This document shows positions 9,721 to 44,274 of a stretch of DNA of 64,000 nucleotides, piece by piece. The stretch's first letter is position 1, and every line of letters starts with the position of its first letter. Origin of the DNA: Candidatus Nomurabacteria bacterium (GTDB taxonomy: Bacteria; Patescibacteriota; Patescibacteriia; UBA1558; GWA2-36-10). The notes below the pieces were generated by a model. The model did no database searches, was not told the origin of the DNA, and saw only the letters and a list, made by a program, of their open reading frames with translations. The position numbers were made by a program, and so were the translations under genes. The stretch is from the NCBI GenBank assembly GCA_020632415.1, contig JACKFO010000002.1, positions 711,918 through 775,917 of the forward strand, written 5' to 3'.

Positions 9721-10119
9721 ATGAAGGGATTTTTTGCAAACATCGAACAAGACACTCAAGATAATGATAATTTTCGCAAGGTTTTGTATACCGGAAAAAA
9801 TAGTCAGTTAGTTTTGATGTCTTTAAAACCAAAAGAAGAAATTGGAATGGAGATTCATGCTGAAAATGACCAGTTTTTTCGATTTGAAAAAGGAGTAGGT
9901 AAGTGTATTATCGATGGCAATGAGTACGAGCTTAAAGATGGCGTGGCGGTTGTTGTTCCGGCTGGAGCAGAGCACAACATTATCAATACTTCAGAAACTG
10001 AAAGCTTAAAATTATACACTATTTATTCACCGGCTCACCACAAAGATCAGATTGTGAGAGCTAGCAAAGAAGAAGCTGAGGCCAATGAAGAAGATTTTGA
10101 TGGACAGACTACGGAGTAA
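9721..10119 (+). CDS. Cupin domain protein
   Basis: Cupin-2-like motif VVPAGAEHNIINTSE with a beta-barrel sized core and an acidic tail. Confidence 0.55.
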   Translation: MKGFFANIEQDTQDNDNFRKVLYTGKNSQLVLMSLKPKEEIGMEIHAENDQFFRFEKGVGKCIIDGNEYELKDGVAVVVPAGAEHNIINTSETESLKLYTIYSPAHHKDQIVRASKEEAEANEEDFDGQTTE

Positions 10120-10140
10120 TTTTTAAAAAAAGCTTAAAAA

Positions 10141-10169
10141 GAAGCGAGTGTTTACTTGCTTCTTTTTTT
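10141..10169 (+). terminator. Rho-independent terminator after the cupin gene
   Basis: Stem gaagcgagt/acttgcttc (one G-U pair), loop gttt, then TTTTTTT. Confidence 0.55.
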
Positions 10170-10190
10170 GTTAAAGTTTAATATTTTAAT

Positions 10191-10703
10191 ATGCGTAAAA
10201 ATAAAATTAAAGTTGTTGTTAACGACAAAATGCAGAAAAAATATGTTTATTACTTAACTGAAGAGGAGGGTAAGAATTTTGATCCAGAATTTAAGCCAGA
10301 ATTAAGTCCACGAGAAATGTTGCGTCTAGGAGTATTTGGTGGAAAGTATCTATCAGATTGTCAAAAAGAATTTCCAGCTGCTTGGTTTAAAGATGTTCGT
10401 TTTTCAGAAAAATATCATCAAGCAGATTTAAATTTTTTTAAAGTCAATGCTTCTCAGTCTCTTTCGGTTTGGCAAAAAAATGGCTGGATTCATCCAGACG
10501 ATCCGCGCGGTTGGTTTCAGTGGTATTGTCGTTATTATCAAGGAAGGCGTCACCCTGATGATCAAAGACAAATCAAAAGATGGAAGGCCATCAGAAGGCA
10601 TATTGGGCAAGTTAAAAAAAATTGTTATTCTGGAGACCTAGCTTGTCGTCGAAAACAGCGGCAAGCAATTTTGCATTGGGCTTATGATTCAAGAAAGATT
10701 TAA
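10191..10703 (+). CDS. Conserved hypothetical protein (Trp/Arg-rich motif)
   Basis: ORF with the distinctive block GWIHPDDPRGWFQWYCRYYQGRRHPDDQRQIKRW. I could not assign a family. Confidence 0.4.
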   Translation: MRKNKIKVVVNDKMQKKYVYYLTEEEGKNFDPEFKPELSPREMLRLGVFGGKYLSDCQKEFPAAWFKDVRFSEKYHQADLNFFKVNASQSLSVWQKNGWIHPDDPRGWFQWYCRYYQGRRHPDDQRQIKRWKAIRRHIGQVKKNCYSGDLACRRKQRQAILHWAYDSRKI

Positions 10704-10730
10704 TTTTTTGTTTACGAAAAAAGCTATTTT

Positions 10731-10739
10731 TGTTATAAT
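10731..10739 (+). promoter_or_regulatory. Extended -10 (TGtTATAAT) six nt upstream of the galU ATG (leaderless)
   Basis: tgttataatatagttATG. Confidence 0.4.
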
Positions 10740-10745
10740 ATAGTT

Positions 10746-11606
10746 ATGAAAAAAATTCGTAAAGCAGTAATTGCTGTAGCTGGGTCTGGAACAAGGTTGT
10801 TGCCAGCTACCAAGTCTATGCCCAAAGAAATGTTGCCGGTTGTCGATAAGCCGATCATTCAATTAGTAGTCGAAGAGTTGGTTGCCGGAGGAATTGAAGA
10901 TATTATTTTGGTAACAAAATGGGACAAAAAGCCACTTGAAGATCATTTTGATCATTCTTGGGCCTTGGAGCACGATTTAGCAGAAAGCGGTAAAAAAGAA
11001 AAATTAGCCGAAATGAAAAGAATTTCAGAGATGGCTAATTTTATTTATGTCCGCCAGAAAGGACCATATGGTAATGGAACCCCAGTGTTATCAGCAGCTA
11101 GTTTAGTTCAAGACGAAGCATTTATGTATGTTTGGGGTGATGACTTGGTAAGATCAAAAGTTCCTTTTGCCAAGCAGATGATTGATGATTATCAAAAAAC
11201 AGGACATTTAATGATTGGTGTTCAGAAAGTTCCTCGTAACCAAGTTGATCGTTATGGAATTGTTAGTCTCAAAGATAAAAAAACAATGCAGTTAAATGGC
11301 ATTATTGAAAAACCAGAGATTAAATCTGCTCCTTCTCAGTTGGCAGATTTTGGACGAATGATTTTAAATCAAGAAATTGTCGATATTCTTAAAAAAACTA
11401 AACTTGGAAAAGGAAATGAACTTTGGATTGTTGACGCTATTCGTGATTACATCCAGGCCGGAGGAGAGTTTTATGCCAAGGAAGTAAAAGATGGCGAATG
11501 GCTCACCACCGGAGATCCTTGGAACTTGTTGAGAGCAAATTTAGAATACGCTCTTGAAAGAAAAGATTTAAAACAAGCTTTAAAAAAATATTTAAAAAAT
11601 ATTTAA
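10746..11606 (+). CDS. galU: UTP--glucose-1-phosphate uridylyltransferase
   Basis: Signature AVIAVAGSGTRLLPATKSMPKEMLPVVDKPIIQ. Confidence 0.85.
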   Translation: MKKIRKAVIAVAGSGTRLLPATKSMPKEMLPVVDKPIIQLVVEELVAGGIEDIILVTKWDKKPLEDHFDHSWALEHDLAESGKKEKLAEMKRISEMANFIYVRQKGPYGNGTPVLSAASLVQDEAFMYVWGDDLVRSKVPFAKQMIDDYQKTGHLMIGVQKVPRNQVDRYGIVSLKDKKTMQLNGIIEKPEIKSAPSQLADFGRMILNQEIVDILKKTKLGKGNELWIVDAIRDYIQAGGEFYAKEVKDGEWLTTGDPWNLLRANLEYALERKDLKQALKKYLKNI

Positions 11607-11608
11607 GT

Positions 11609-12973
11609 ATGAAAAGATTGCGTTTTTCTATTTTGATTATTTTGGCGATTTTTATAATCACCACTGGTTTTGGTTGTAAACAAAATATTATCAATCAAGC
11701 CCAGTTTGAACCGGTTGCTTTAGAATATTGGGGAGTTTGGGACACTCCGGAACAAATGCAAAAAATTATTGACGCTTATCAAGCTACTCACCCTACGATT
11801 AAAGTTAAATATCGCAATTTTCGTTATGATGAGTATGAACAAAAATTATTAGAAGCTGCTTGGGAAGATCGGGTACCGGATATTTTTATGATTCCGGCTA
11901 CTTGGCTCAAAAAATATCAAGACCGACTTTATCCAATGCCAGCGACAGTCAAGATTCCAGTCAAAGAAGTGCAAGGAACAATCAAACCAGAAGAGGTAAC
12001 AACCTTGAAGACTATCAATAGTTTAAGTAAGCAAGATGTCAAAGATCAATTTGTACAAGTTGTTTATGATGATGTGATTTTGGATGATCAGATTTACGGC
12101 CTGCCTTACTCAGTAGACACTTTAGTTACTTTTTATAATTTAGATTTATTAACTCAGAGTGGAATTCCTGAACCAATGGTAGATTTTCATGATTTAGTAG
12201 AGCATGTTCAGCAATATAAGTTATCAAAAATAGGGGCAGCTAATCAAGTTTTACAAGCAGGAGTTGCTTTGGGGACTGCTGATAATATTCCCCGTTTTTT
12301 CGATATTTTATCAAGCATCATGCTTCAAAATCAAGTCGAAGTTAAAGGAAAAAATTTCAGTCCACTACAAAGCAAAAGTTCAGCTACTAATTTAGCAGAA
12401 GTGTTTAATTTTTATACTGACTTTGCTGATCCGACCAAAGCAATTTATTCATGGAACGATGATCTGCCGAATGCCTTTGAAATGTTTACGCAAGGAAAGT
12501 TGGCTTATTTTTTTGGCTATAGTTATCATGCTGATGAATTACGCAAAAGAGGCGTTCAGTTTGATTGGGAGATTACTAATTTTCCAAAGACCAGAGGCTC
12601 AGAAGGAAGCGTCTATTATTCTAACTACTGGGTAAATGTAGTTCCGCAAAAATCAAAAAATAAGGATGCTGCTTGGAATTTTATTCAGAGCACAGTCAAT
12701 AAAAATATCGTGACAAATTATCTTAGTCCAAATAAAAAACCAACGGCCTTAAGATCTTTGATCAATGGCCAATTACAAGATGAAGATATTCGAATTTTCG
12801 CCTCACAAGTATTGACGGCTGATAATTGGTACGATGGTTATGATATTGATTTAGCTGAAAAATATACTGCGGATTTTATTAATTCTGTTTTAGCTGGAGA
12901 AATAGAAATAGACAATGAGGGTCTGGCATTTTTTGTCAGTCGAATCAATCAAACTTATAAAAAACAAGAATAA
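11609..12973 (+). CDS. ABC transporter extracellular solute-binding lipoprotein (family 1, sugar-type)
   Basis: Lipobox TTGFGC after the signal peptide; SBP-like length and composition. Confidence 0.55.
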   Translation: MKRLRFSILIILAIFIITTGFGCKQNIINQAQFEPVALEYWGVWDTPEQMQKIIDAYQATHPTIKVKYRNFRYDEYEQKLLEAAWEDRVPDIFMIPATWLKKYQDRLYPMPATVKIPVKEVQGTIKPEEVTTLKTINSLSKQDVKDQFVQVVYDDVILDDQIYGLPYSVDTLVTFYNLDLLTQSGIPEPMVDFHDLVEHVQQYKLSKIGAANQVLQAGVALGTADNIPRFFDILSSIMLQNQVEVKGKNFSPLQSKSSATNLAEVFNFYTDFADPTKAIYSWNDDLPNAFEMFTQGKLAYFFGYSYHADELRKRGVQFDWEITNFPKTRGSEGSVYYSNYWVNVVPQKSKNKDAAWNFIQSTVNKNIVTNYLSPNKKPTALRSLINGQLQDEDIRIFASQVLTADNWYDGYDIDLAEKYTADFINSVLAGEIEIDNEGLAFFVSRINQTYKKQE

Positions 12974-12981
12974 AGATAAGT

Positions 12982-13902
12982 ATGAAAAAATTTATTAGTT
13001 TGGCTTTTAGCTTTTCTTTACTGTTTGTGCCCTTTATTTCACATGCTGGCTTTTTAGATGACTTGAGCTGCATTCCTTCTGGTAACTGCGGCTTACTTGA
13101 TGTGGAGTTTGGCTTTGTTTTGCTGACTAAGTTTTTAATCGGCAGCGTTGGCGCTTTGGCCTTACTTTATTTTATTTGGGGCGGCATTCAGTGGCTAACC
13201 TCTTATGGAAACTTGGAAAAAGTCAGACACGGTAGAGAAATAATGTTGCAAACCATCGTAGCTATAGTGATTGCTTTTTTGAGTTTTATTTTGGTTGAAT
13301 TTTTTATCAACGATGTTTTGCAAGCCAGGCAGCCGGTAATTTCTACTGGTTGTGCTGGAAAAACAATGGGAGCTAGTTGCGGAGAAGACAAGCTTCATGT
13401 TTGTACTGGTCAAAAATTTACCGGAGAAGACTCAATTCATAATGAGCGTTGTGTGACAAAATGTGAGCTCAAAAATTTACAAGACAAGGCTAATGTTTGG
13501 ACTTGTTTAGCGCCAGAGATTGCCAGTCAGGCAGGAGTAGAAAAAGAATTGAATTTATGTCCAGGGACAGAAATTTGTGTCAATGCCAATACTATTCCTT
13601 TACGAAATATACCGGTTACCGAATTTAACGATCAAAATCGTTGTTGTGTTGGAGCACCGACTAACAGCGGTTCCGCTTGTCGATCAATTGGGATATTAGA
13701 CACTTGCTTGCCAGGAACAATTTTAAGTGAAAATACTTGTAGTTCTTTGGCGATGTGCGATAGTAATTGGCACACAGATCCAGGTTGCTGTATTGAGGTT
13801 GATCCTGATTCTTCTTTTACTTGTCAGCAACAAACCCCAGGGACTATTTGTGAGTTTAATTTTTCTGCTAATTTATTATGCAGTAGTGTTCCGGGGTGTT
13901 AA
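12982..13902 (+). CDS. VirB2/TrbC-like pilin-family protein fused to a large cysteine-rich C-terminal domain
   Basis: Signal peptide, then the pilin core LLYFIWGGIQWLTSYGNLEKVRHGREIMLQTIVAIVIAFLSFILVEF shared with the four downstream paralogs. This is followed by about 190 aa containing about 26 Cys. Confidence 0.6.
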   Translation: MKKFISLAFSFSLLFVPFISHAGFLDDLSCIPSGNCGLLDVEFGFVLLTKFLIGSVGALALLYFIWGGIQWLTSYGNLEKVRHGREIMLQTIVAIVIAFLSFILVEFFINDVLQARQPVISTGCAGKTMGASCGEDKLHVCTGQKFTGEDSIHNERCVTKCELKNLQDKANVWTCLAPEIASQAGVEKELNLCPGTEICVNANTIPLRNIPVTEFNDQNRCCVGAPTNSGSACRSIGILDTCLPGTILSENTCSSLAMCDSNWHTDPGCCIEVDPDSSFTCQQQTPGTICEFNFSANLLCSSVPGC

Positions 13903-13923: not shown

Positions 13924-14262
13924 ATGAAAAAAATAATTTTAGTATTTAGTATCTTATTGTTAGCGCCAATTCATTTCGCTTCAGCTGTCCAACTTTACAA
14001 TCCTTTGGGAAATGGTGTTAATAATTTTCCAGCTTTAGTTAACAATGTGATCAAAGGCGTCTTAGGGTTAACTGGCGCAGTTGCTTTGGTAATGATCGTC
14101 ATCGGTGGTGTGACCTGGATGACTTCTGCTGGTAATGCAGATCGAGTTAGACGTGGTAAAGATACTTTACTTTGGGCGATTTTAGGCTTGATTATCATTT
14201 TTATTAGTTACGCAGTAATTGATTTTGTTTTCAAGGCTTTGTTAAATGGTCAAGCTGCTTAA
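13924..14262 (+). CDS. VirB2/TrbC-like (T4SS-type) pilin family protein
   Basis: Signal peptide and two hydrophobic helices. The core VIGGVTWMTSAGNADRVRRGKDTLLWAILGLIIIFISYAV resembles the VirB2 ...IGISWMFGRAS... topology. Confidence 0.55.
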   Translation: MKKIILVFSILLLAPIHFASAVQLYNPLGNGVNNFPALVNNVIKGVLGLTGAVALVMIVIGGVTWMTSAGNADRVRRGKDTLLWAILGLIIIFISYAVIDFVFKALLNGQAA

Positions 14263-14342
14263 AGTTGATTGAAAAAAAACGTTCTTTGGTTTATAATGTA
14301 GCTATAATTATTAAAATATTTTAAATGAAAGGGGGTGGAAAA

Positions 14343-14690
14343 ATGAAAAAAATTTTGACAGCTTTATTACTAGTCGCTCCAATGATGGTTTCTGCTCAAG
14401 ATAATTTTGGTATTGATGATTTGACCAACACCGGTTTAGGTACTCGTGGTTTAAAATCAACAATTGCTCAATTACTTAACGTAGTTTTAAGTTTCTTAGG
14501 CATTATCGCCGTTTTAATCATCTTGTTAGGTGGTTTTAAATGGATGACTTCACAAGGCTCATCTGATAAAGTAGACGAAGCTAAAAAACTTATCGGCGCT
14601 GGCGTCGTTGGTTTAATCATCATCTTAGCTGCTTACGCTATTGTGCGTTTTGTCTTAACTGAGGTTTACTCTGCGACAACCGAGGCATAG
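14343..14690 (+). CDS. VirB2/TrbC-like pilin family protein (duplicate A)
   Basis: SD aaggggg lies 8 nt upstream of the ATG at 14343. The ORF-track start at 14325 merely translates the SD. Core LLGGFKWMTSQGSSDKVDEAKKLI. Confidence 0.55.
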   Translation: MKKILTALLLVAPMMVSAQDNFGIDDLTNTGLGTRGLKSTIAQLLNVVLSFLGIIAVLIILLGGFKWMTSQGSSDKVDEAKKLIGAGVVGLIIILAAYAIVRFVLTEVYSATTEA

Positions 14691-14797
14691 AGGCAGGGTA
14701 AGATGGGCTATTATAGTCTAGACTATAGTAGGCCAAAACTTGGCCTACTAAAGCGTAGATTATAAAAAATTGTTTTATAATGAAAGGGGGTGGAAAA

Positions 14798-15139
14798 ATG
14801 AAAAAAATTTTGACAGCTTTATTGCTAGTTGCTCCAATGGCCGCTTCTGCTCAAGCCAACTTTGGTATTAATGATTTAAATGGTACTGGTTTAGGTACCG
14901 CTGGTTTGAAGACAACAATCGGATCATTGCTTAATGTTGCTTTAAGTTTCTTAGGCATTATCGCCGTTTTAATCATCTTGTTAGGTGGTTTTAAATGGAT
15001 GACTTCACAAGGCTCATCTGATAAAGTAGACGAAGCTAAAAAACTTATCGGCGCTGGCGTCGTTGGTTTAATCATCATCTTAGCCGCTTACGCTATTGTT
15101 CGTTTCGTCTTAACCGAAGTTTATAACGCTACAACGTAG
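14798..15139 (+). CDS. VirB2/TrbC-like pilin family protein (duplicate B)
   Basis: The C-terminal half is near-identical to duplicate A at nucleotide level, while the N-terminal mature region has diverged. Same SD context. Confidence 0.55.
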   Translation: MKKILTALLLVAPMAASAQANFGINDLNGTGLGTAGLKTTIGSLLNVALSFLGIIAVLIILLGGFKWMTSQGSSDKVDEAKKLIGAGVVGLIIILAAYAIVRFVLTEVYNATT

Positions 15140-15226
15140 TTCGTAAACACAGCGTAACATAGGCTATTATAGTCTAGACTATAGTAGGCCAAGTTTTGGC
15201 CTACTAAAGCGTAGATTATAAATTTT

Positions 15227-15601
15227 ATGTATAAATTACTTTTTGCTTTTTTATTGTTAATGCCATTTCATTTTGCTTCAGCTTTGACCGCTGAAGAAGG
15301 CTTACGTAGCGCTGCTGAAGGTACTGGTTTGAGCATTGAAAAAAAGATTCCAGATTATATTGGAATGTTAATTCGCGGTGCTCTTGGTTTACTGGCTGCT
15401 ATTTTTTTGGTTTTGATTGTTTTGGCCGGATTTAAGTGGATGACCTCTGCTGGTAATTCTCAGAAGATAGAGAGCGCTAAAGAAACAATTCTTAACTCGG
15501 TTATTGGTTTGGTGATCGTTTTGGTTTCCTATGCGATTGTTGAGTTTGTTTTAAGAGCAATGAAAGGGGCAACTAATGCAGGTGGAGTAATTACGCAATA
15601 A
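15227..15601 (+). CDS. VirB2/TrbC-like pilin family protein
   Basis: Core VLAGFKWMTSAGNSQKIESAKETILNSVIGLVIVLVSYAIVEFV. Confidence 0.55.
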   Translation: MYKLLFAFLLLMPFHFASALTAEEGLRSAAEGTGLSIEKKIPDYIGMLIRGALGLLAAIFLVLIVLAGFKWMTSAGNSQKIESAKETILNSVIGLVIVLVSYAIVEFVLRAMKGATNAGGVITQ

Positions 15602-15616
15602 TTTTTTAAAAAATAG

Positions 15617-15653
15617 AGCCCTCTCGCAAGCTGATGCTGCGAGAGGGCTTTTG
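15617..15653. terminator. Bidirectional rho-independent terminator between convergent genes
   Basis: 12-bp stem agccctctcgca/tgcgagagggct flanked by T/A runs on both strands. Confidence 0.65.
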
Positions 15654-15668
15654 GTTCCAGAAGGATTA

Positions 15669-16280
15669 TCAGCGGAGCTCGACGTACCAGTCGACTGGCT
15701 TACCATTGAATTCCACCTTGTGACGATCGTCACGAATCGTCACCTTGGTGTAGTGGTTTTCTCCACGCGAAGTTTTCCAGTGAATGGTCATGGGGCCTGG
15801 GCTCAGGTAAAGCGCCTGACTAGCTTGACCGACTTCCAAGTGACCAACATTGCTGTAGCCACGGTAGGATACGATGTCAATTGGCTCTCGATAAGTATTG
15901 ATGAAGTAGCCTTCCAGTCGAGGCATGTTGTTTAGCAGGAAATCGTCTAGCTTAATTTCCTGAATTCCAGACCAGCGTCCGGTTCGCTGAATTGTGATCG
16001 CTTGTTCGTCTGAATATTGATCGATTTCGAGCCAGTACTTGACTCTCAGTCGAAGCTGGTCTTGGCGCGGCGTTTGAAAGCTGTGGCTTTGACCGGGCAG
16101 TAATTCAACGTAGGAGTTTCCCGAAGCTTCGGCCACGCTGAACATTACTCGCTCTCTGTCAGCTACGACTTTCCACTGACAAAACTCTTCGTTGTAATTC
16201 ATGCCACCATGGTAAGTGGCGCAGCCGGTCAGGAAGGCGACAAAGAGGATTGTCAGCCAGAGCAGTTTGTTGATCTTCAT
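15669..16280 (-). CDS. Hypothetical lipoprotein in a GC-rich island
   Basis: Signal peptide MKINKLLWLTILFVAFLTGC with lipobox. SD aggaaaag precedes the ATG at 16280. Local GC is about 50% against about 30% in the flanks. Confidence 0.55.
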   Translation of the reverse strand: MKINKLLWLTILFVAFLTGCATYHGGMNYNEEFCQWKVVADRERVMFSVAEASGNSYVELLPGQSHSFQTPRQDQLRLRVKYWLEIDQYSDEQAITIQRTGRWSGIQEIKLDDFLLNNMPRLEGYFINTYREPIDIVSYRGYSNVGHLEVGQASQALYLSPGPMTIHWKTSRGENHYTKVTIRDDRHKVEFNGKPVDWYVELR

Positions 16281-16392
16281 GGTCTTTTCCTTCTGCTTGT
16301 TTGATTGTCCAAGGTTCAAATCATTATATTATACTCTATTTTATCTATTTTGTCAATACACTTCGTCTTTTTGCATATGCTATAATTTAGCT

Positions 16393-42958: not shown

Positions 42959-43762
42959 TTATATTTTTAGTTTGTTTAGTTGATTTTTGAGTGTCTGATG
43001 GATTTTTTTGTTAGCAGCTAATAAGGTTTTTGATTTTAAATTCCATTCTTTGCCTTGAAAGTCAGTGACCTTTCCACCGGCCTCACGAATTAAAATTATT
43101 CCTGCTGCAATATCCCAAATCTTTGCTTGCGCTACTATCAAGGCCTCGGTATTGCCGGCAGCCACCATGGCTAGTTCTAAAGTTGTGCTGCCAAAGTGTC
43201 GGCAATCACGCGCAACTTCATGAAAGTGTTCGTAAACTTTGTAAGCTTGTCGATGAGTCTTTAGGGTCTGTCCATGACAGTAAGTAATGAAACTTTTTTT
43301 CAGTAAATTAATTTCAGAAACTTTAATTTTTTTATTGTTTCTAAAGGCGCCAGCCCCAGAAACAGCATGGTACAACTCGTTTAAAACAGGCATGTAAGTC
43401 ACACCCAAGACAATTTGATCTTTATAAAGCAGACTAACCGAAACAGTAAACAGGGGATTGTGAATCGTAAAATTACTAGTGCCATCCATTGGATCGATAA
43501 CCCATGAATAGTCACTACTTTTATTATTCTTGCCACTTTCTTCAGACAAAACAGCGTAATCGGGAAAGTTTTTGTTTAGAATATTTAAAATAGTGCCTTC
43601 AGATTTTTTATCGCACCAAGTGACAATTTCATCGTGTTTTTTGTAAGTTGCCTTACCGCGTTGCCATTTCTTAAATTCTTTTTCCAAAGCTTCGCCAGCT
43701 TTGATTACGGCTTGTTTAACAATTTTTAATTCTTTTTGGTAGTTCATTTTTATGCTTGACAT
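42959..43762 (-). CDS. Inositol monophosphatase family protein (SuhB-like)
   Basis: WVIDPMDGTSNF and IMPase-like length. Confidence 0.75.
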   Translation of the reverse strand: MSSIKMNYQKELKIVKQAVIKAGEALEKEFKKWQRGKATYKKHDEIVTWCDKKSEGTILNILNKNFPDYAVLSEESGKNNKSSDYSWVIDPMDGTSNFTIHNPLFTVSVSLLYKDQIVLGVTYMPVLNELYHAVSGAGAFRNNKKIKVSEINLLKKSFITYCHGQTLKTHRQAYKVYEHFHEVARDCRHFGSTTLELAMVAAGNTEALIVAQAKIWDIAAGIILIREAGGKVTDFQGKEWNLKSKTLLAANKKIHQTLKNQLNKLKI

Positions 43763-44274
43763 TTATTACTTGTTCCACAATTATAGCTGCAGCAATCAGA
43801 ATCAGAGGAACATCCTGAATCATTTGCCACACAAGATTGACAAAAATCTACGCCATCGTTATGTTCAAAACATTTTTCATCGGTACAAACAATTAGTTCA
43901 TTTGGATTTGATGTTTTTTGAATTTCTAGACAAAATTTTTGTTTTTGGTAATTTGATCTTATTTTTCGATAAGAATAATTTTCTATAGTTGGCCAACGCC
44001 AATTATTCAAAAAATTATAGCAAAGAAATTCTGGAGGCGTCGGAACACTTAAAGAACATTGAAGCCCTGTGCATTGTAAATTTGCACCAGAGTCTAAACA
44101 CAAAATAGCTTCGGTTTGCAGAGCTTTGATCTCTCCTAGTGCAGCGGCATTTTTAGCATCTTCGCGTGCTGAATTTAAATTGATTACCGCCACAGAAGAT
44201 AGTATGCCAATAATTGAAATTACTACTAATAATTCCACTAAAGTAAAACCTTTTTTGTTTTTCTTTTTGATCAT
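43750..44274 (-). CDS. Type IV pilin (prepilin) with a Cys-rich C-terminal domain
   Basis: Class III leader MIKKKNKKG|FTLVELLVVISIIGIL. The start at 44274 abuts the upstream stop. About 13 Cys in the last 90 aa. Confidence 0.7.
   Translation of the reverse strand: MIKKKNKKGFTLVELLVVISIIGILSSVAVINLNSAREDAKNAAALGEIKALQTEAILCLDSGANLQCTGLQCSLSVPTPPEFLCYNFLNNWRWPTIENYSYRKIRSNYQKQKFCLEIQKTSNPNELIVCTDEKCFEHNDGVDFCQSCVANDSGCSSDSDCCSYNCGTSNKCQA

Follow-up and report, generated by a model that had tools for sequence, protein, structure and literature searches.

Results

Genes at the locus

The DNA analysed here is a stretch of 64,000 nucleotides (hereafter the window) from a Candidatus Nomurabacteria bacterium (GenBank assembly GCA_020632415.1, contig JACKFO010000002.1, positions 711,918 to 775,917 of the forward strand). 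Its gene of interest heads an array of five pilin genes, of which no other is long, and the encoded protein continues from a pilin core of the VirB2/TrbC type into a long C-terminal tail packed with cysteines. The window is chromosomal DNA of Patescibacteria, also called Candidate Phyla Radiation (CPR), and not a mobile element; it has 35% GC and carries rpoC, ftsK, recA, polA, uvrB as well as genes for aminoacyl-tRNA synthetases and for glycogen and sugar metabolism. We conclude with high confidence that the Cys-rich protein is a genuine, conserved and modular VirB2-type pilin, whose exported Cys-rich tail has three modules with previously undescribed folds. The features of the locus are collected in Table 1.

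The Cys-rich pilin is identical to the hypothetical protein H6761_03765 of Candidatus Nomurabacteria bacterium, encoded on a contig of 842 kb, and an identical copy was also found on a second contig in a Logan assembly. Its residues 1-115 comprise the signal peptide and the two-helix pilin core, while residues 116-306 form the tail. A preliminary description of this DNA, made from the sequence alone, had placed an open reading frame (ORF) with the Cys motifs CAGKTMGASCGEDKLHVCTGQ, NRCCVGAP and DPGCCIEVD at the position given in Table 1; the coordinates and all three motifs were confirmed in the translation. Its reading as the core of a filament subunit that continues into a long extension rich in Cys is also supported by our data. 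The length of about 190 amino acids (aa) that it gave for the extension was correct (191 aa), but its count of about 26 Cys was too high, because 20 Cys are found in the tail and 22 in the whole protein, the remaining two being the N-terminal residues C30 and C36. Moreover, what had been taken for a single Cys-rich domain consists of three modules, named A, B1 and B2. Cysteines make up 10.4% of the tail compared to 0.57% across the 54 remaining ORFs, and the binomial probability of finding at least 20 Cys in 191 residues is 3e-19.

Table 1. Coordinates of the Cys-rich pilin, its sub-features and its neighbours, given as positions in the window (E, expectation value; pLDDT, predicted local distance difference test score; Sec, general secretion pathway)
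Feature	Coordinates	Strand	Properties
Cys-rich pilin ORF	12982-13902	+	ATG to TAA, 306 aa
Sec-type signal peptide	12982-13047	+	Residues 1-22: MKK, hydrophobic stretch, SHA/G; from hydropathy
Acidic N-terminal motif	13048-13107	+	GFLDxLxC...GxCxLxDV; subfamily-specific, absent from neighbouring short pilins
VirB2/TrbC-type pilin core	13108-13326	+	Helix 1, basic loop (WLTSYGNLEKVRHGRE), helix 2
Module A	13342-13590	+	Residues 121-203, 8 Cys, compact alpha/beta domain, pLDDT 91-95
Linker	13591-13638	+	Residues 204-219, variable, pLDDT below 50
Module B1	13639-13761	+	Residues 220-260, CC-x10-C-x8-C-x10-C-x5-C, predicted three-stranded beta unit
Module B2	13780-13899	+	Residues 267-306, CC-x10-C-x8-C-x9-C-x5-C, predicted three-stranded beta unit
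Promoter-like site	10711-10739		Upstream of galU-like gene; 10/12 match, extended TG
galU-like gene	10746-11606	+	NTP_transferase, Pfam PF00483
Solute-binding lipoprotein	11609-12973	+	SBP_bac_1/SBP_bac_8, Pfam E 2.3e-25
Short VirB2-type pilin 2	13924-14262	+	112 aa, no Cys; PF18895 E 2.3e-10
Short pilin 3	14325-14690	+	PF18895 E 3.8e-8; likely start at second Met, 14343
Short pilin 4	14780-15139	+	PF18895 E 4.5e-8; recent duplicate of pilin 3
Short pilin 5	15227-15601	+	124 aa, PF18895 E 4.2e-10; last in array
Hairpin	15617-15649		13-bp stem, 8 GC pairs; between last pilin and convergent gene
Convergent lipoprotein-like ORF	15669-16319	-	LTGC lipobox in translation; likely start 16280
Type IV pilin	43750-44274	-	N_methyl motif PF07963, 174 aa, 14 Cys

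The core is of the VirB2/TrbC type

The N-terminal part of the protein has the topology of VirB2/TrbC pilins, i.e. a signal peptide, two hydrophobic helices, a short basic loop between them and fitting charges. Hydropathy analysis revealed hydrophobic segments at residues 1-22, about 43-70 and about 86-113, and the AlphaFold 2 (AF2) model of the core contains helices at residues 38-73 and 78-112, which form a hairpin. The MKK start and the A/GFLD junction are kept in homologs, and cleavage probably occurs at SHA/G, leaving a mature protein of about 284 aa. The mature N-terminal segment carries four acidic and no basic residues, and its positions L25, D26, C30 and C36 show no variation among 19 sequences. 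The tail is acidic as well, with 21 D+E vs 12 K+R. Because of the Sec signal peptide, the two hydrophobic helices and the basic loop between them, the predicted topology is N-out and C-out as in VirB2-type pilins, which puts the tail on the outer side of the cytoplasmic membrane.

The assignment is also reflected in database matches. Residues 54-108 of the Cys-rich pilin match the Pfam family PF18895 (T4SS_pilin; E 5.2e-6, 26.9 bits, cutoff 26.6), the same family is clearly recognised in the four neighbouring short pilins (33.5-40.8 bits), and it is listed in the precomputed Pfam annotation of 15 of the 19 homologs described below. Short pilin 2 additionally passes the threshold for PF04956 TrbC (28.4 bits, cutoff 27.9). 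The core shares 26-34% identity and the motif GG..W.TS.G with the four downstream short pilins; hence the earlier view that it is the same core as in the neighbours holds, and it can be refined from a generic pilin to the VirB2/TrbC type. The N_methyl motif PF07963 of type IV pilins was not found in the Cys-rich pilin by the Pfam scan, and the protein does not belong to that class. In size it departs from VirB2/TrbC pilins, which typically measure roughly 70-120 aa and have no extra globular domain, whereas the mature protein here is about 284 aa long including its 191-aa tail.

The protein is conserved at full length

A homolog search in 5.8 billion proteins returned 19 matches, 11 of which are full-length proteins (290-334 aa) with 39-51% identity from independent metagenomes. 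According to the preliminary description, its reading would fall if the Cys-rich region were a frameshifted fusion of two genes or lacked conservation in related genomes; neither is the case. With at least 11 full-length homologs and the identical protein in the Logan assembly, such a frameshift or assembly artefact is for all practical purposes ruled out, and the fusion is genuine.

The Cys spacing, for which conservation in homologs had been proposed as a check, proved to be retained: all 20 tail Cys are kept in the 11 orthologs, despite an identity of only about 20% at the other positions of the distal region. In the alignment, 19 of the 20 conserved Cys form strictly invariant columns, while the remaining one, the first Cys of a CPGxxxC motif, was shifted by the aligner in some sequences.

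The tail consists of three modules without recognised relatives

Structure prediction, another check proposed at the outset, gave a confident AlphaFold model (pLDDT 85.5 overall) but no significant match of the tail to a fold in the PDB (Foldseek, best E 0.68). Module A is present in nearly all family members. The variable linker separates it from the B modules, which contain six Cys each and were modelled with pLDDT values of 77-91 (AF2). The profile-profile comparison of B1 and B2 across the family gave P 1.1e-5, therefore B2 is an internal duplicate of B1. A relationship between module A and module B was rejected (hhalign E 0.26). B2 is the most distal and most exchangeable module, and the protein ends on a Cys. 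No Pfam family matched the tail, and a profile search of the tail against the PDB gave no match at E values up to 10.

The high density of Cys would also be in line with metal binding, i.e. zinc or iron-sulfur clusters instead of disulfides. However, CxxC and CxxH pairs are absent, CC and one C-x3-C being the only close spacings, the predicted location is extracytoplasmic, and the Cys counts across the family variants are always even (8, 10, 12, 20 or 22). We regard metal binding as highly improbable; the conservation of the Cys, their even numbers, the absence of CxxC and the predicted export point to disulfides rather than metal sites.

Architectures and distribution of the family

An exhaustive hidden Markov model search with the tail profile over 1.84 billion cluster representatives matched 23 proteins, 21 of which are genuine clusters, one of them a fragment. 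The two others (P0022 and P0033) proved to be repeat proteins of low complexity and were set aside as spurious. Apart from the fragment, the genuine matches are 190-360 aa long and share the N-terminal GFLDxLxC...GxC motif and the pilin core; their tail begins at about residue 96-160, in most of them at about 120. Several architectures were found: core with module A (the A-only forms P0014-18 and P0024-32), core with A and two B modules, core with two B modules, and core with A to which an unrelated domain containing Cys is attached (P0023). A survey of 185,579 species-representative genomes detected full-length matches in three and matches of the core-plus-A type in about five others, all of them metagenome-assembled genomes (MAGs) of Patescibacteria or Parcubacteria. 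The distribution of the family is limited to a narrow Parcubacteria/Nomurabacteria lineage.

The last architecture comes from the related locus L008 (GCA_964638415.1), where two long Cys-rich pilins with different tails are encoded in tandem (positions 10001-12039). One of them (P0020, 317 aa) has the A+B+B tail, and the other (P0023, 358 aa) carries an unrelated 140-aa Cys- and His-containing domain behind module A. The latter domain has no Pfam or PDB sequence match, and its assignment as a LAS/M15 peptidase was not supported by these searches. The tandem pair suggests that the C-terminal payloads may be exchangeable.

In this regard, the Cys-rich modules could be viewed as a payload resembling toxins or antimicrobial peptides, with a small three-disulfide beta fold, that would be delivered to or released onto a host, since the different domain in place of the B modules in P0023 suggests such an exchangeable payload. 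However, the tail is acidic in contrast to the cationic defensins, and neither a cleavage site nor an immunity gene is evident; a toxin-like payload is very improbable. The modules also differ from the three-disulfide beta folds of beta-defensins and crotamine in that their Cys pattern opens with CC, and homology to these peptides is unsupported.

Apart from the family proper, a series of further loci (L019-L050) from many Magasanikiibacteriota and other CPR MAGs was matched over spans of 900-1300 nt, in which only core residues align. These spans probably represent additional tandem arrays of pilin genes, or long pilins that carry other tails. Several of the records are labelled 'uncultured Gammaproteobacteria', yet look like Patescibacteria.

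Conservation decreases with distance from the membrane

Mean pairwise identities among ten full-length orthologs differ strongly between the regions of the protein. The core is 73% identical, with the same value when the shared Cys are left out, followed by module A with 40% (33% without shared Cys) and the B1 and B2 modules with 33% (20%), while the linker shows 19% either way. Hence, identity drops with distance from the membrane in the order core, A, B. A fixed Cys scaffold combined with surface residues that change fast, most of all at the distal end, is a usual feature of interaction domains exposed at the surface.

Across six syntenic genomes, the mature N-terminal segment together with the core is 60% identical, compared to 53-72% for the short pilins, 64% for GalU and 67% for the solute-binding protein (SBP) in the same genomes. 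Because its identity matches that of the short pilins, GalU and the SBP, the core looks constrained like an assembling subunit.

Between the closely related proteins P0007 and P0008, identity amounts to 93% for the core, 83% for module A and 65% for B1, but only 24% for B2. The pair has different types of B2, that of P0008 clustering with a variant with 8 Cys that occurs in P0004 and P0005. Such a pattern would be expected from an exchange of the distal module. Silent B-module cassettes elsewhere in the window were not found by tblastn.

The solute-binding protein gene and the pilin array

The gene upstream of the Cys-rich pilin encodes a solute-binding lipoprotein; no ABC permease or ATPase gene adjoins it. 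The SBP gene is located directly upstream of the Cys-rich pilin in 7 of 7 loci (the window and six related ones). Both genes are almost certainly co-expressed, because the gap between the SBP gene and the pilin ATG is only 8 nt in the window and the two ORFs have 4-17 nt in common in L006, L007 and L008. The galU gene precedes the SBP gene in 5 of the 6 related loci, whereas L007 has other genes there.

The main rival explanation is a membrane-anchored surface protein that forms no filament. The hairpin would then be an anchor, and the ectodomain would work together with the coupled SBP, for example in the capture of host glycans or nutrients. Besides the invariant position of the SBP gene and its overlap with the pilin ORF in three loci, this explanation is favoured by the neighbourhood, where genes of sugar and glycogen metabolism abound (galU, starch synthases, GH57, GalT) and machinery of a type IV secretion system (T4SS) was not found. 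However, the conservation of the core equals that of the bona fide pilins next to it, the gene always heads a pilin array, and a plain anchor would not need the conserved GG..W.TS.G motif. Overall, we consider an anchor function without filament rather unlikely.

Five of the related loci have one long pilin followed by three to four short ones, while L008, the sixth complete locus, has two long and three short pilins. As first gene of the operon and with its well-conserved core, the Cys-rich pilin could itself be the major subunit of its own, fully decorated filament. Against this, four short canonical pilins are co-encoded, two of them recently duplicated, and a tail of about 2.5 times the size of the core would be hard to pack, judged from the geometry of F- and T-pili and not from a computation. 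Such a filament therefore appears very improbable.

The hairpin behind the last pilin is probably a bidirectional terminator at the end of the operon. Pilins 3 and 4 arose by a tandem duplication of about 455 bp (14319-15222), in which the 300-nt coding repeat is 89% identical. The repeat also includes a 73-nt intergenic element, which is 92% identical and contains the palindromes TATAGTCTAGACTATAG and TAGGCCAAAACTTGGCCTA. Between pilins 2 and 3 lies a near-consensus match to a sigma-70-like promoter (14269-14297; TTGAAA, 17 nt, TATAAT), and pilins 3-5 may therefore be transcribed apart from the unit of SBP gene, Cys-rich pilin and pilin 2.

The convergent ORF behind the array has no significant Pfam family, the only listed match being T4_Spackle with E 0.1. 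It is syntenic (204-225 aa) in all related loci for which the retrieved sequence continues beyond the array, and it may be part of the system. Where the sequence reaches far enough, this ORF is followed by DUF2079 in some loci and then by yebC and ruvC.

A second Cys-rich pilin in the window

The preliminary description had also pointed to the type IV pilin at 43750-44274, whose richness in Cys is confirmed (Table 1); no further protein of the window is rich in Cys. Its last 30 residues show the knottin-like spacing C-x2-C-x6-C-x6-CC-x3-C-x6-C. Homology between its tail and that of the VirB2-type pilin was rejected (hhalign probability 0.3%), and genes for type IV pilus machinery were not found in the window. 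The additional suggestion that both filament systems of this organism may present Cys-rich domains thus goes by the pilin genes, as the window encodes neither T4SS nor type IV pilus machinery. The protein itself is a candidate for a modular type IV pilin.

Discussion

Tandem arrays of 2-11 VirB2-like pilins are known from Patescibacteria, in which 441 such arrays were found in 383 assemblies (PMC12102498). The pilin array of Southlakia epibionticum, the one species with genetic studies, was reported to be essential (PMC12102498), and the T4SS gene cluster was reported to be essential for the epibiotic growth of this organism (PMC12857230). The Cys-rich pilin resembles these Patescibacteria pilins in its signal peptide, two-helix hairpin, PF18895 match and location in a chromosomal tandem array of divergent pilin genes. 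It differs from them not only in its mature size, which is roughly 90-100 aa in typical members, but also in the 190-aa Cys-rich tail and the N-terminal Cys-loop motif, and its array is not located beside virB4. Pilins with large C-terminal domains are not mentioned in PMC12102498 or PMC12857230, and a full-text search for literature joining Patescibacteria, VirB2 and cysteine-rich gave no such publication among the matches listed.

How might such a protein work? After Sec export and cleavage of the signal peptide, the two hydrophobic helices would form a hairpin in the membrane with both ends outside, which would leave the acidic 190-aa C-terminal domain on the cell exterior, where A, B1 and B2 are probably held by about ten disulfides. 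The Cys-rich pilin, co-transcribed with the solute-binding lipoprotein, would then be built into one assembly together with the four short pilins, with the status of a minor or tip subunit. There, the tail could be presented outward and bind a ligand or a host surface. Such binding would supply an adhesin function of the VirB5 or PrgB kind, which is otherwise lacking in the T4SS loci of Patescibacteria, and divergence and occasional swapping of the distal B modules would change the specificity. As the best reading, we hold with moderate confidence, at about even odds, that the Cys-rich pilin is a subunit of low abundance, which assembles together with the short pilins and uses its tail as a binding module with B modules tuning the specificity. 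The adhesin or tip role and the attachment of an epibiont to its host, as already proposed in the preliminary description, are plausible inferences only.

Several points weigh against the Cys-rich pilin being a co-assembling binding subunit. An adhesin model leaves the tight coupling to the solute-binding protein unexplained. Genes for VirB4, VirB6, VirB3 and VirD4 are absent from the 64-kb window and from the 8-10 kb flanks of the six related loci, so that the linkage to a T4SS expected for a VirB2/TrbC pilin was not found there. The PF18895 score of the Cys-rich pilin lies barely above the threshold, and a ligand-binding fold was not recognised in its tail by the Pfam, PDB profile and PDB fold searches. 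Moreover, a 190-aa domain on a two-helix pilin may be sterically incompatible with polymerisation. Finally, a VirB2-type pilus has, to our knowledge, never been visualised in any Patescibacteria. Regarding the missing linkage, the pilin gene was found near virB4 in 1,135 of the 1,948 Patescibacteria assemblies having both, therefore unlinked arrays are common (PMC12102498).

The closest concept to a co-assembling pilin with a grafted binding module are the modular type IV pilins PilB and PilC of Streptococcus sanguinis (PMC8179133, PMC9934059). In PilB, an adhesive von Willebrand factor A (vWA) module is grafted on a pilin module and predicted to be located at the tip of the filament (PMC8179133). 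However, these proteins belong to a separate filament superfamily, whereas the Cys-rich pilin has a VirB2-type hairpin and neither a class III signal peptide nor an N-methylation motif, and its grafted module matches no known fold or ligand. VirB5/TraC and PrgB are comparable in the proposed role only, i.e. as low-abundance, surface-exposed contact factors of T4SSs. They show no sequence or fold similarity to the tail, which has no Pfam match, and VirB5 is a separate soluble protein and not a fusion to VirB2. VirB5 has been stated to be absent from the T4SSs of Gram-positive bacteria, with Patescibacteria as a recent exception for VirB2 and VirB5 (PMC12857230), while the Patescibacteria dataset of PMC12102498 yielded no adhesins of the PrgB type.

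Patescibacteria rely on contact with host cells. It is a tentative and rather doubtful possibility that the Cys-rich protein is the first recognised VirB2 pilin with a grafted binding module and thus a counterpart, among T4SS pilins, to the modular type IV pilins, that it represents the missing host-contact adhesin of Patescibacteria T4SSs, that exchange of B2 acts as a host-specificity switch, and that A and B are two new disulfide-rich folds. The functional statements on the Cys-rich pilin are all inferential and the family is narrow. Nevertheless, its tail defines two small Cys-rich modules without detectable relatives in Pfam and the PDB, and a VirB2-type pilin with an ectodomain of conserved scaffold and variable surface represents a concrete and testable candidate for the factor by which T4SS pili of Patescibacteria make contact. 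If this is true, the principle of modular pilins would extend from type IV pili to T4SS pili.

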